A stretch of DNA of 13,785 nt. Origin: Abditibacteriaceae bacterium. GTDB lineage: Bacteria; Armatimonadota; Abditibacteriia; Abditibacteriales; Abditibacteriaceae. The position numbers were made by a program. This document shows, piece after piece, positions 1-3,000 of the stretch. The stretch spans positions 1 to 13,785 of the forward strand of contig JANPJS010000249.1 of assembly GCA_031425655.1 (NCBI GenBank). Reading direction: 5' to 3'. Each line of letters begins with the position of its first letter. Position 1 is the stretch's first letter.

Positions 1-3000
1 TAAAAGTTTTGAGTTTTGAGTTGAGAAGACGGCCTTCGATTCTTAACTCAAAACTCAAAACTTTTAACTCAAAACTCATCTTGCGGGTTGCTCCGGGAGC
101 CGGGCGGTCTCATAAGCCGCGCAGGGAAGTTCAACTCTTCCATCCGCAATCAGTATCGGAAATTGGGAATTTAGAATGGAGAACAGCGGGCTGCAATTCA
201 AAATTCTCAATTCAAAATTCTTAATTCTAAAGCGGCGTAGTGTAGAGGAAGCACTCCAAAATTTCCCTTCGCAATTTTTGCCCGCCGATTCATGGCGCGG
301 GCCGGCGCAAAGGGTTACCGCCTCCTAAGCGGGAAGGGCAGGTTCGATTCCTGCCGCCGCCATTGAAGAAATCTCGCAAGAGAAATCTTCAACCGAACGG
401 GCCGTTGGCTGTGGATTATCATTTGACTCTTAATCAAACCCGATAAAACATCCACGCCAGTTTTGTCTGTTCGGAAGCACAATCAGGCGGGCCGTTGGGT
501 CTGGGTTATCTGGTTACAGTGAGTTCGATCCTTGCACTTCGTCCGGCCAGGCGAGGCGTTGGTTTGGCCCAAACGAGGTTTCCCACGCGCGACAGCAATG
601 CCGCAAAGGGGTTGCCCAGCCCGCACTTTGCCTGCCCAATTTTCAGAATTGAGAATAGTGAATGAAGAAATGCAGTCCAATTTTCTACATTCTTCATTCT
701 AAATTCTTCACGAACAACGTAGCTCAACGGTAGAGCATTAGAAGGCCGCAAGGCCGTTTCCCTGCCCGCTTTTTGCCCGATGGGTCGGGCCGTAGGAACA
801 GGGTTATCTTGGATCTGAAGGTTCCCGGTTCGAGTCCGGGCGTTGTTCACAGACCGTCGTTGCGGGCCGAAGCCATTGGGTTATTGTCTTGAAAACACTG
901 CGCCCCAATCGCGTTCACTTGTCCGCTGCGACGGAAATCACGGACGGTGTAGCTCAGTCTGGTTAGAGCGACGGAACAGAATTGTGAATTTAGAATTGAG
1001 AATGGAGAAATGCAGATTCCTTTCTCCATTCTAAATTCACAATTCTTCATTCCGTTAGTCCCCGGTTCAAATCCGGGCACCGTTCCCAGTTCGTGAGACG
1101 GGCCGAAGCGTTTGGGTTATCAATTTCCATGATCCGCCCCAATCGCGTTGTCTTGTCCGTCTCACGGCAAAATTATGAATTGAGAATTAAGAATGAAGAA
1201 TAGAGAAAAGCGGACTGCAATTCAAAATTCAACATTCAAAATTCTCAATTCCGAAAAAGGAGGGTCGAACAATGACCTACTTGAAGAACTTGGCCGCGCG
1301 TTTGAACGGAGATTCCACGCGCGGCGCCGTCCCGAACGGCACGCCGCAAAACGAGCCGATTCTCGGCACGTCGCAGGTGCGAAACAGCGCCGGCGGCTAC
1401 GTCTGGGCGGTGGACGACTGGACGCGCTTGAACCGCTTCCTAATTTTGGGAGCAGAAGGCGGCAGCTATTACGCGAGCGAGCGTGCTCTGACAGCCGAAA
1501 ATGCCGGCGCCGTTTTCCGCTGCGTGGATGCCGATGGCCCGCGCGTGGTGCAAACCATCGTGGACATCAGCAAAAGCGGACGGGCGCCGAAGAACGATCC
1601 GGCATTGTTCGCCCTTGCTTTGGCCGCGGCTTACGGTGACGACGCCACGCGCCGAGCCGCGTTGGACGCACTGCCTCAAATCGCGCGCACCGGCACGCAT
1701 TTGATGCACTTCGCGGCTTTCGTGGACGGCAAGCGCGGCTGGGGCCGTGGTTTGCGTCGGGCCATCGGCGCGTGGTATGAGGCGCGTCCCGCGAAGGACG
1801 TGGCCTATCAGGCGCTGAAATATCAGGCGCGCGACGGTTGGAGCCACCGCGATTTGCTGCGCTTGGCGCATCCTCAGCCGGCTAACGATTCGCAGCGCAC
1901 GCTGTATCACTGGATCACGCAAGGCTGGGAGGGAGTCGGCGACGAGCCGCATCCCGACCCCGCGCTGCGCCAGATTTGGGCTTTCGAGCGGGCCAAGCGC
2001 GCGACGACGGCAGTCGAAATTGCAAGCCTGATCCGCGATTATCGTTTGCCGCGCGAAGCCATTCCGACGCAATGGCTGAACGAAGCTGTTGTGTGGGAGG
2101 CGTTGCTCGACGATATGCCGATGACGGCCTTGATTCGCAACCTCGCTACGCTGACGCGCGTGGGACTTCTGGCGCCGAAAAGCGACTGGACGAAGCGCGT
2201 TATCGAGCAAATCGGCGACACAACTCGGCTGCGTAAGGCGCGCGTGCATCCGATTGCCGTTTTGTCGGCGCTCCGCACTTATGCAGGTGGTCACGGCGTG
2301 CGCGGTGGCAACACCTGGACGCCGGTGCAGAAAGTCGTGGACGCTCTTGACGGCGCGTTCTACGCCGCTTTCGGCAACGTCGAGCCGACGAACGCGCGCT
2401 GGCTATTGGGCCTTGATGTTTCGGGTTCGATGACCTGCGGCAACGTCGCCGGTGTGCCGGGATTGACGCCGCGCGAAGCCAGTTCCGCGATGGCTTTAGT
2501 CACAGCGGCGACCGAGCCGCATTATCAGACGATGGCGTTTTGCGACCGCTTTGTGCCGCTCGGACTATCGCCTCGCCAGCGTTTGGACGACGTGCTGAAG
2601 TTGACGAACAACCTGTCGTTCGGCGCGACCGACTGCGCCTTGCCGATGCTGTGGGCGATGCAGCACAAGGCCGAAATTGACGTTTTCGTGGTCTACACCG
2701 ACAGCGAAACGTGGTTCGGCAAAGTGCATCCGGTTCAAGCGTTGCGTCAGTATCGTGAGAAGACCGGCATCGCGGCGCGTTTAATCGTGTGCGGCATGGT
2801 GGCGAACGCGTTCACCATCGCCGACCCGAAGGATGCAGGCATGATGGACGTGGTCGGTTTCGATACCGCCACGCCGCAACTCATCGCAGACTTCGCGCGC
2901 GGCGAGTTGTGATACTGAAGGCACATCGGAATTTTTCGATGTGCCTTCAGTTTGAGCATCGGGAGAAAATTGCAATGGATCGCCTGCAACAGAAAAACGA

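Follow-up and report, generated by a model that had tools for sequence, protein, structure and literature searches.

The window analysed here, the whole 13,785-nucleotide stretch of DNA, carries a Ro60 orthologue (rsr) at positions 1272-2912 on the plus strand. Its 546-aa product matches the Pfam families TROVE (2.4e-46) and vWA_Ro60 (8.1e-68) and, among PDB entries, Rsr of D. radiodurans (2NVO, 1e-150) and Ro60 of X. laevis (1YVP, 6e-135). As the first-pass annotation had recognised, the gene is preceded on the same strand by an array of Y-RNA-like modules. That account listed five, starting at 399, 489, 787, about 865 and 1100; these starts stand (the fourth at 864), but the count does not, as a sixth module lies upstream at 299. 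All six GGGCCG…GGGUUAYC modules (GGGCCG…GG(G/A)TTA(T/C)(C/T) in the DNA) fall within 1 kb upstream of rsr on the plus strand, and they belong to three simple stem-bulge Y RNAs, one Y RNA with an internal T arm, and two tRNA-Y chimeras. The strict form of the motif, GGGCCGNNG-N5-8-GGGTTATC, occurs three times on both strands of the 5.98-Mb assembly, and all three occurrences are here (489, 787, and 1100); the earlier tally of four here and 13 elsewhere was not reproduced, and the clustering is tighter than that tally implied. A relaxed form gave six matches in the assembly, five of them at the rsr array. The ORF downstream of rsr (2975-3808) matched no Pfam family and had no tblastn match beside rsr in any other locus. 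Furthermore, when all ORFs of at least 100 aa from 74 loci were clustered, no protein neighbour besides rsr was common to more than 11 loci. The top ORF clusters of these loci were shadow frames of rsr.

The array opens with unit A (81-151, plus strand, as are all units), a tRNA-Met(CAU)-like RNA reported by ARAGORN, with a 3-nt D loop and without a Y module. It had no Rfam match at E≤1 and folds with a z of -1.98; in its homologues from two relatives (G021 and G023), each of the four stems has compensatory changes, and another homologue likewise heads the array of a third (G022). Unit B (231-362) is a chimera of the extra-arm type, included as a row in alignment A1 and scoring 85.4 bits with R1, our covariance model of the chimeras. 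Its acceptor stem and D arm are followed by the Ro helix (motif at 299), which is closed by a loop, then by a hairpin with seven loop nucleotides, and last by the T arm. The acceptor stem comprises 6 bp plus a terminal A-C mismatch, the 7-nt anticodon-like loop CUCCUAA sits on a 4-bp stem, and about 60 nt of module separate this hairpin from the D arm. Its 3' part reaches 26.3 bits with Rfam tRNA, under the gathering score of 29, and the z of its MFE (234-363) is only -0.61. Between B and the next unit, a short putative hairpin with a GCAA loop (364-392) was read from the sequence. Unit C (393-474; motif at 399, in the GGAUUAUC variant) is a divergent simple Y RNA whose 5' and 3' ends pair in the Ro helix (z -5.15, with none of 200 shuffles folding as well), and to which R2, the covariance model of the simple Y RNAs, gave no match at E≤1 in a genome-wide search. 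Unit D (484-636; motif at 489), read from its fold and from a comparison with one such element per relative, is a Y RNA with an open Ro helix and an internal domain that starts with a T-arm-like hairpin (…UUCGAUC…) followed by a closed stem; no D arm was recognised in it, Rfam YrlA did not match it, and its MFE z (484-632) is only -0.81.

Unit E (712-850), a chimera of the loop-replacement type, was reported by ARAGORN with introns as a tRNA with a 66-nt insert and scores 106.3 bits with R1. Behind an acceptor stem of 8 bp and a D arm comes an anticodon-like stem of 5 bp, inside which lie a GCAA hairpin and the Ro helix (motif at 787), here closed by a loop; a T arm with a UUCGAGU loop follows. 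The fold has a z of -2.46, and Rfam at E≤1 left the unit unreported. The order of a real tRNA, with RNA ends in the acceptor stem and a loop-closed module, had been claimed for this unit before and agrees with the covariation described below. The 7-bp acceptor stem of that description needs to be corrected, as the stem has 8 bp here and usually in the chimeras. Units F (854-934; motif at 864) and H (1092-1167; motif at 1100) are simple stem-bulge Y RNAs, both with GCCGAAG, scoring 74.9 and 79.7 bits with R2 and folding with z of -2.94 and -5.10; F also shares in the covariation of the simple-Y family. Both match RF01656, the family of nematode stem-bulge RNAs, which are homologous to Y RNAs: H (1094-1163) at 39.4 bits, over the gathering score of 38, and F (858-929) at 30.5 bits. 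The paired ends previously assigned to these two RNAs were recovered in MFE folds of 854-935 and 1091-1168, and 392-475 pairs in the same manner. Unit G (942-1088) lies between them, a tRNA-like RNA without a Y module, matched by Rfam tRNA at 47.0 bits (943-1085), by ARAGORN with introns at 943-1088, again with a 66-nt insert, and by R1 at 52.5 bits. Its anticodon stem continues into an AT-rich hairpin of about 76 nt belonging to a genome-wide dispersed repeat family, its fold has a z of -9.08, and its CCA is encoded at 1086-1088. The Rfam and ARAGORN matches in the first-pass annotation were thus all reproduced.

All six modules share a bulged helix, with the 5' strand CGGGC-C-G…GGGUUAYC and the 3' strand CUUGCCYG. 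Judged by its sequence, it is probably the bacterial equivalent of the helix through which Y RNAs bind Ro60; this helix had previously been reported as not identified at the locus. In this helix, CGGGC-C-G pairs with (U)UGCCY(G), leaving a bulged C, and a G-U pair is conserved in 21 of 23 and 54 of 63 elements of the two sets described below; two predicted pairs flanking the bulged C are unsupported, with 15 and 16 of 23 cells unpaired. The positions of GGGCCG are conserved in 59-63 of 63 chimeras and 57-61 of 61 simple Y RNAs, and those of UUA in 63 of 63 and 59-61 of 61, respectively. In C, D, F, and H the helix is made by both RNA ends, whereas in B and E a loop of few bases closes it. The strict YrlA motif GNCGAA(N0-1)G is present exactly in two of the six modules (F and H), the remaining ones having GCCGUUG, GCCGUAG, or GCCGGCG at this site. 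For vertebrate Y RNAs, the helix consensus has a GGUCCGA-like 5' strand (Chen 2014, PMC4201824).

Covariation supports the folds of both RNA classes. R1 was trained on chimeras of rsr-positive genomes of the family, where 23 elements from eight genomes have 91.8% of cells paired, compared to 36-51% with the partners slid, and both-sided changes at 20 of 31 pairs. A further 63 chimeras were obtained from 36 of 71 other rsr loci, which had not been used for R1 and represent several phyla; in these, 97.3% of cells pair (41-47% when slid) and 24 of 29 pairs show both-sided changes. The chimera family thus extends beyond Abditibacteriaceae. With R1, the ordinary tRNAs of this genome stay at or below 48.3 bits and those of the other loci at or below 51.0 bits. 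For the simple Y RNAs, the model R2 was built from a six-sequence seed (A6), which replaced a MAFFT alignment of 11 sequences (A2) dropped for misaligned 3' strands; among 61 hits outside the training set, 93.0% of cells pair (36-47% when slid), with both-sided changes at 16 of 20 pairs. Alignments A4 and A7 were fitted to the models and are hence biased toward the modelled structures, and several distant chimeras have an unremarkable MFE z (-0.56 to -2.75). The rsr strand carries all 63 of these chimeras and all 61 simple-Y hits, including the minus-strand hits of one locus (L014) that is recorded in reverse orientation.

The earlier observation of homologous tRNA-with-insert elements in other Abditibacteriaceae was borne out: they occur on the rsr strand in seven of 40 relatives, with one to five in each. 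At E≤1e-10, chimeras were present in eight of 13 rsr-positive and none of 28 rsr-negative genomes, a comparison among related genomes of which the rsr-positive ones had served to train R1. Carriers with complete genomes are Desulfonema magnum strain 4be13 (L047) and Abditibacteriota bacterium IAD-21 (L088). The spacing of the units is tight as well: of 14 chimeras that come after a simple Y RNA, 11 are separated from it by no more than 14 nt and eight by no more than 3 nt, and a chimera is followed by a Y RNA within 25 nt in 13 of 20 cases. Likewise, the array studied here alternates between simple Y RNAs and tRNA-like units separated by few bases (gaps of about 5, 7, and 3 nt), an arrangement suggesting that they are released by tRNA-processing enzymes.

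The closest known relatives of the chimeras are the YrlA RNAs (RF02553) of Salmonella, M. smegmatis, and phages, which also lie beside rsr on the same strand. In the 2014 YrlA-II seed alignment, the circular order of parts equals that of the chimeras, namely Ro 5' strand (with a GGUUAYC end), hairpin with a 7-nt loop, T arm, acceptor-like stem, D arm, and 3' strand, and the loop sequences CUUCUAA, CUCAUAA, and AUUGAAA are common to both. However, in YrlA the RNA ends form part of the Ro helix and a loop closes the acceptor stem (Wang 2018 preprint 10.1101/312249), whereas in B and E the predicted ends belong to the acceptor stem, the loop closes the Ro helix, and the D arm precedes the T arm. 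Given this arrangement, B and E would be tRNA-like Y RNAs in an "unpermuted" form, related to YrlA by circular permutation. Furthermore, conservation extends to both strands of the Ro helix here, but in Salmonella and M. smegmatis no more than the 5' strand can be recognised (Chen 2014, PMC4201824). Unit D resembles YrlA in that the T arm comes first and a closed stem next, but differs in having no recognisable D arm. The Rfam YrlA model (gathering score 69) had no match in the window at E≤1, nor there in a genome search at E≤10, and none at the gathering threshold in 15 other rsr loci; the best YrlA match in the genome (31.2 bits, contig C61) spans two ordinary tRNAs.

Other systems share features with the locus. 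In D. radiodurans, Yrn1 and Yrn2 retain both Ro strands, as animal Y RNAs do, rsr is preceded by several Y RNAs, and Yrn2, tRNA-Asp, and Yrn1 form one precursor (Chen 2014, PMC4201824). Yrn1 even has the tRNA order of D arm, anticodon-like arm, and T arm, but its Ro stem takes the place of the acceptor stem, which is present and open here, with the Ro helix as a side arm. The YrlA of M. smegmatis is cut by RNase P and receives CCA, and the same paper describes a Ro60-bound tRNA-like body with free acceptor ends, formed as a two-piece RNA cut from a permuted precursor, unlike the one-piece form encoded directly at our locus. Units F and H, with 75-80 nt and the sequences GGGCCGAAG…GGGUUAUC and …CUUGUCCG, are reminiscent of animal Y RNAs and of the stem-bulge RNAs of RF01656, but are bacterial, stand in an array with tRNA-like units, and, in the case of F, score under the threshold. 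With respect to tRNA itself (RF00005), E, B, and G align as a cloverleaf with acceptor stem, D arm, T arm, and the signature bases of the D and T loops, yet a regular anticodon arm, with seven loop bases, a 5-bp stem, and the usual distance to the D arm, is present in neither E nor B. A search of the full-text literature, in which Chen 2014 and its supplement were covered in part, found no description of an unpermuted tRNA-Y RNA.

From the observed sequences, conserved folds, linkage to rsr, and spacing of the units, we infer with fair confidence that positions 81-1170 hold a same-strand array of small RNAs serving the Ro60 protein encoded downstream. A search with positions 1-1300 listed no RNA sequencing run that contains them. 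The array would be transcribed as one precursor, in which cleavage by RNase P and 3' tRNA-processing enzymes at four tRNA-like units (A, B, E, and G) would also release the interleaved simple Y RNAs. CCA would be added after cutting, a step that is needed in this genome anyway, as 53 of its 67 tRNA genes have no encoded CCA. Ro60 would then bind the helix of each RNA, including that of B and E with its predicted loop-closed far end. In the chimeras, Ro60 may be tethered to a tRNA body that is L-shaped and has its acceptor end free, and this body may recruit a tRNA-binding partner, by analogy with the tethering of PNPase by Yrn1 in Deinococcus.

Units such as B and E might instead be working tRNA genes or precursors, mainly serving decoding, in which the Ro-type hairpin is tolerated or removed. 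Consistent with this, hairpins with a 7-nt loop of anticodon form (U at position 2, purine at position 6) are kept in 15 of 86 chimeras under the strict rule and in 34 when 3-bp stems are allowed, as opposed to shuffled means of 1.6 and 3.3; moreover, the signature bases of the D and T loops are kept, and large ordinary tRNA arrays flank rsr in other genomes. However, an anticodon loop is missing from E and the rest of the loop-replacement type (which the classification rule, a weak test with a shuffled mean of 14.3 and a maximum of 25, assigned to 27 of 86 chimeras), a standard tRNA-Arg(CCU) exists elsewhere in this genome (C273), the hairpin sequence is the conserved Ro helix, and the units are confined to rsr-carrying genomes. 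Bacteria are also not known to have a splicing route for such an insert, and we regard a primary role in decoding as improbable.

A second objection is that the real RNAs are ordinary permuted YrlA spanning adjacent units, the chimeras being a reading-frame artefact of a tandem array. Such an RNA would begin with the Ro 5' strand of one unit, include the T arm of that unit and the spacer, and continue over the acceptor 5' strand and D arm of the next unit to the Ro 3' strand of the latter. Indeed, the Rfam YrlA model gave a match over two adjacent units elsewhere (L087:5883-6008), with 25.4 bits far below its gathering score of 69, and in the 2014 seed alignment the Chondromyces row is threaded across two adjacent tRNA-like units. 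The acceptor strands of neighbouring chimeras pair at 6.15 of 8 positions, compared to 5.26 for random pairs, and 15 of 27 neighbour pairs reach 7 or 8, so that an alternative inter-unit pairing is possible in some arrays. Pairing within the units, in contrast, is both better and nearly uniform (7.73 of 8 positions; 47 of 63 perfect, as against three of 27 between neighbours), and all eight acceptor pairs covary there. In the window, moreover, neighbouring units have unrelated acceptor sequences with simple Y RNAs or repeats between them, the two strands of the module are joined by loops of few bases, and YrlA has no match at E≤10. Hence we consider it quite unlikely that the chimeras are such an artefact.

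Slightly less probable still is that the array stays unprocessed and serves as a long cis-acting leader on the rsr mRNA, offering several Ro60 sites for feedback. It does end about 100 nt before the rsr start codon on the same strand, and a scan of positions 1-3100, which begin at the contig end, gave no sigma-70-like promoter, two terminator-like sites (5.1 expected, an outcome of little informative value), and no site of either kind between array and gene; the missing promoter weighs against the favoured reading as well. On the other hand, the same RNAs lie downstream of rsr in other genomes (L087, L065, L067, L100, and L044), two orphan chimeras of another genome (G011) are located between gmk and coaBC, 1.7 Mb away from rsr, and both the ends and the spacing of the units are of the tRNA type. 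Finally, the notion of functionless, decaying tRNA pseudogenes and repeat insertions, to which unit G with its dispersed repeat in place of a Y module might lend itself, is already contradicted by the compensatory changes in 24 of 29 pairs across several phyla and by the near-invariant helix motif, and is hardly credible.

If positions 81-1170 do constitute an array of small RNAs for Ro60, as we favour, the view of tRNA-like Y RNAs in bacteria would broaden. The Wang 2018 preprint (10.1101/312249) describes these RNAs as circularly permuted tRNAs whose acceptor stem is closed and which offer no free CCA end, a description that restricts which partners such RNAs could have. With a widespread form that has open acceptor ends and frequently an anticodon-type loop, tRNA-type processing, CCA addition, and possibly even charging become testable. 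In addition, the Rfam YrlA model misses predicted Ro60 partner RNAs in Armatimonadota, Chloroflexota, Myxococcota, and other groups. The arrangement also provides a concrete route to YrlA, in which a Ro-binding arm is added to a tRNA, the resulting unit undergoes tandem duplication, and the pair is then read from mid-unit to mid-unit. Although this is speculative and we would not rate it as probable, the extra-arm chimeras, with anticodon-type loops such as CAU, AUU, GAU, UUU, UCU, and CCU, among others, might be CCA-ending look-alikes of mature tRNAs that hold the Ro60 ring and at once display a particular anticodon loop and acceptor end. Together with the tRNA arrays that flank rsr in many genomes, they might make up a module, spread by horizontal transfer, for surveying, shielding, or decoying certain tRNAs, for instance against anticodon nucleases, and duplication and re-cutting of the tandem arrays might have given rise to permuted YrlA.

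The window spans the first 13.8 kb of contig C249 in an assembly of 5.98 Mb, and its rsr gene (1272-2912, + strand; Pfam TROVE and vWA_Ro60) is a Ro60 orthologue whose product matches Rsr of D. radiodurans (2NVO) at 1e-150 and Ro60 of X. laevis (1YVP) at 6e-135. Within the 1.27 kb ahead of rsr no ORF was accepted as a gene; structured elements, every one on the + strand, follow one another there. These are a tRNA-Met-like RNA whose D loop has 3 nt (unit A, 81-151), a tRNA body carrying a Ro-helix module, hereafter a chimera, of extra-arm type (B, 231-362), a short hairpin (364-392), a simple Y RNA (C, 393-474), a Y RNA with an internal T arm (D, 484-636), a chimera of loop-replacement type (E, 712-850), and, finally, two simple Y RNAs (F, 854-934; H, 1092-1167) on either side of a tRNA whose anticodon loop is replaced by a long AT-rich hairpin (G, 942-1088). 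That hairpin (970-1057) is one copy of a dispersed family composed of 7-base palindromic repeats, with further copies in the window at 1-68, ~152-233, ~637-711 and ~1171-1255; five copies used as BLAST query matched 75 contigs of the genome, and the family may act as a processing site, a stabiliser or a mobile repeat.

Searching for the motif GGGCCG…GG(G/A)TTA(T/C)(C/T), which starts at 299, 399, 489, 787, 864 and 1100, confirmed the clustering proposed by the first-pass annotation and made it stronger, as all three strict matches on both strands of the genome and five of the six relaxed ones fall in the array stretch; its counts of four matches here and 13 elsewhere could not be reproduced. 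The ARAGORN-with-introns calls, Rfam matches and end-pairing folds were reproduced on re-running. Furthermore, the Ro helix, which had not been located before, was recognised in the modules. The 5' strand of F and H, CGGGC-C-GAAG…UGGGUUAUC, lies opposite …CCCA…CUUGUCCG, forming 4-5 pairs and a bulged C followed by G-U and A-U, a layout matching that given in Chen 2014 (PMC4201824) for the GGUCCGA helix that Xenopus Ro60 contacts. H exceeds the RF01656 gathering score, with an Rfam alignment that displays the Ro-helix pairing. In B and E the strands come in reverse order, the 3'-type strand (…CUUUUUGCCCG) being followed by a 4-7-base loop and the 5'-type strand, so that the Ro helix becomes a closed hairpin. 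The two strands had the same consensus in 63 independent chimeras as in 61 independent simple Y RNAs: GGGCCG is conserved in 59-63 of the 63 and 57-61 of the 61, UUA in 63/63 and 59-61/61, respectively, and CUUGCCYG forms the 3' strand in both.

Chimera-type elements occur on the rsr strand in seven rsr-carrying relatives, at one to five per genome. On an alignment of 23 elements including B and E we tested a structure devised in this analysis, consisting of an 8-bp acceptor stem, D stem, T stem, distal module stem and Ro helix. Paired cells amounted to 91.8%, against 36-51% with the partners slid by 1-3 columns, and 20 of 31 pairs showed changes on both sides. Two pairs adjoining the bulged C were without support and were removed. 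A covariance model derived from this alignment scored E at 106.3, B at 85.4 and G at 52.5 bits and no ordinary tRNA of the genome above 48.3 bits, a gap by which the genome has two chimeras, both in the window.

Beyond this family, 74 rsr loci were recovered from public genomes by Ro60 alignment, 71 of which had contributed nothing to the model. At a threshold of 60 bits, 36 of these 71 yielded 63 elements, all on the rsr strand, while the best match of ordinary tRNA length across these loci reached 51.0 bits. The loci are labelled Armatimonadota, Chloroflexota, Myxococcota, Desulfonema magnum, Ca. Entotheonella and Ca. Parabeggiatoa, labels that may be unreliable where they come from MAGs. 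In the 63 elements, 97.3% of cells were paired (41-47% when slid) and 24 of 29 pairs changed on both sides; this alignment was fitted to the model and is thus biased towards the modelled structure, but both the control with slid partners and the double changes argue against a fitting artefact. Among 41 genomes (the window's own and 40 relatives), strong chimeras occurred in 8 of 13 with an rsr match and in none of the 28 without, a contrast that is not an independent statistic, since the genomes are kindred and the eight are those that supplied the model. One relative, G011, carries two tandem chimeras (82.4 and 76.4 bits; L109:4098-4385, i.e. G011:C1:2682097-2682384, minus strand) 1.7 Mb away from rsr, flanked by guanylate kinase and coaBC, with neither a Ro60 gene nor a simple Y RNA in the vicinity.

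The main rival to a unit with its ends in the acceptor stem is a permuted YrlA, the known tRNA-like Y RNA, read across two units. Such a path, running from the Ro 5' strand and T arm of one unit to the D arm and Ro 3' strand of the unit that follows, is traced by a weak Rfam YrlA match of 25.4 bits (gathering score 69). However, acceptor strands pair at 7.73 of 8 positions within a unit (perfectly in 47 of 63), compared with 6.15 between neighbours (perfectly in 3 of 27) and 5.26 between random units. All eight acceptor pairs covary within units, and the units of the window have unrelated acceptor sequences with other elements in between. We therefore favour the unpermuted reading, although the complementarity of neighbouring acceptors, being above random, still deserves attention.

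The unpermuted chimeras come in two architectures. In the extra-arm type (B), the module follows the D arm and precedes a kept hairpin with a 7-nt loop of anticodon-loop form, the motif's UUAYC doubling as the 5' strand of its stem; 15 of 86 chimeras conform strictly and 34 when 3-bp stems are allowed, against shuffled means of 1.6 and 3.3 (maxima 5 and 9). In the loop-replacement type (E), both a small GNRA/UUCG hairpin and the module lie within a 5-bp anticodon-like stem; 27 of 86 were counted, a weak test given that shuffling yielded 14.3 on average and up to 25. Many of the 86 lie outside both strict rules.

A simple-Y covariance model built on six seed sequences matched only H and F in this genome, C being a divergent simple Y RNA beyond its reach. 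Elsewhere it gave 61 matches in 40 of 76 other sources, 37 of these 40 among the 71 rsr loci named, with 93.0% of cells paired (36-47% when slid) and both-sided changes in 16 of 20 pairs. D, of which each relative has one counterpart, forms the Ro helix at the RNA's ends, and a T-arm-like hairpin and a closed stem come after GGGUUAUC-UGGUUA; no D arm was seen in it, which places it closer to Yrn1 or YrlB than to YrlA.

The A-type RNA is a conserved tRNA-Met(CAU)-like molecule of 69-71 nt with compensatory changes in all stems, found also at L016:810-878, L018:1448-1516 and L110:4087-4155, and it is the first unit of the array here and in G022. Large arrays of ordinary tRNAs on the rsr strand adjoin rsr and Y RNAs in loci L087, L065, L100, L106, L080, L083 and L036, and upstream in G011, with dozens of Rfam tRNA matches in L087 and L065 and 12 tRNAs in G011; our literature search turned up no publication that connects such tRNA arrays to Ro60. 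Contig C61 of the window's genome (4187 nt) bears seven tRNA genes at 85-845 on the minus strand (His, Arg-TCG, Leu-TAA, Trp, Leu-CAA, Leu-TAG, Phe), of which those called 'Leu' have just 74 nt and no long extra arm. The end of this tRNA array may adjoin the start of the window, by analogy with G021 and G023, where tRNA-Phe precedes the A-type unit; C61 and C249 share no sequence overlap. ARAGORN also reported a tRNA with a four-base anticodon (ccgg) within a small tRNA cluster at C217:2459-2549 and a 'tRNA-Stop' (anticodon tta) at C70:1011-1089. As to proteins, no gene besides rsr was conserved next to the array in the rsr loci compared. The 277-aa ORF directly downstream of rsr (2975-3808) lacks a Pfam family and has no relative adjoining rsr in any other locus examined; a ~266-aa ORF lies directly upstream of rsr in 11 of 74 loci (L081:3035-3835 and relatives), with a weak HNH endonuclease match (27.7 bits).

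Both RNA families occur in 18 loci, closely alternating: the gap from Y RNA to chimera is at most 14 nt in 11 of 14 cases and that from chimera to Y RNA at most 25 nt in 13 of 20, and E, F, G and H are separated by about 5, 7 and 3 nt. From this arrangement we infer that the array may be processed by RNase P, which would cut the 5' end of each tRNA-like unit, and by 3' tRNA-processing enzymes at the other end; with such small gaps, the same cuts would also free the interleaved Y RNAs. This resembles two cases reported in Chen 2014 (PMC4201824), namely the Deinococcus precursor of Yrn2, tRNA-Asp and Yrn1, and M. smegmatis YrlA, which RNase P cleaves. An encoded CCA is present in G and absent from B and E, which tells little, as 53 of the genome's 67 tRNA genes also lack it.

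In the YrlA-II seed alignment (PMC4201824, supplementary text 2), the Ro 5' strand, ending GGUUAYC, comes first; after it come a V hairpin whose loop has 7 nt, the T arm, an acceptor-like stem that is closed, the D arm and the 3' strand of the Ro helix. Read on a circle, extra-arm chimeras repeat these parts in unchanged order, whereas the break point lies at the acceptor stem in chimeras and at the Ro helix in YrlA. Furthermore, loop sequences are common to both: CUUCUAA in YrlA of Streptosporangium and M. smegmatis and in the chimeras of L047 and G012, CUCAUAA in Gordonia YrlA and those of L069, L074, L034 and others, and AUUGAAA in phage ET08 YrlA and that of L065. B and E are therefore YrlA homologues with another break point; the YrlA family model did not match such units in searches of the window, the genome and 15 other rsr loci, and they depart from its defining topology. 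In the Chondromyces row of the same seed alignment, the start reads as an ordinary tRNA 5' half, suggesting that the 2014 search may have threaded a permuted model over adjacent tRNA-like units in myxobacteria; Table S1 of that paper has entries for putative YrlAs in Fimbriimonas, Sorangium and Chondromyces.

Loci L033-L106, from genomes labelled as at least six phyla, encode Ro60 proteins that share 55-72% identity with that of the window, which suggests that rsr and its RNA array may have spread together horizontally. A dimeric pre-tRNA origin of YrlA was put forward by Wang et al. (10.1101/312249), and a route of permutation by duplication would need chimeras in tandem whose neighbouring acceptor strands are partly complementary, such as those found here.
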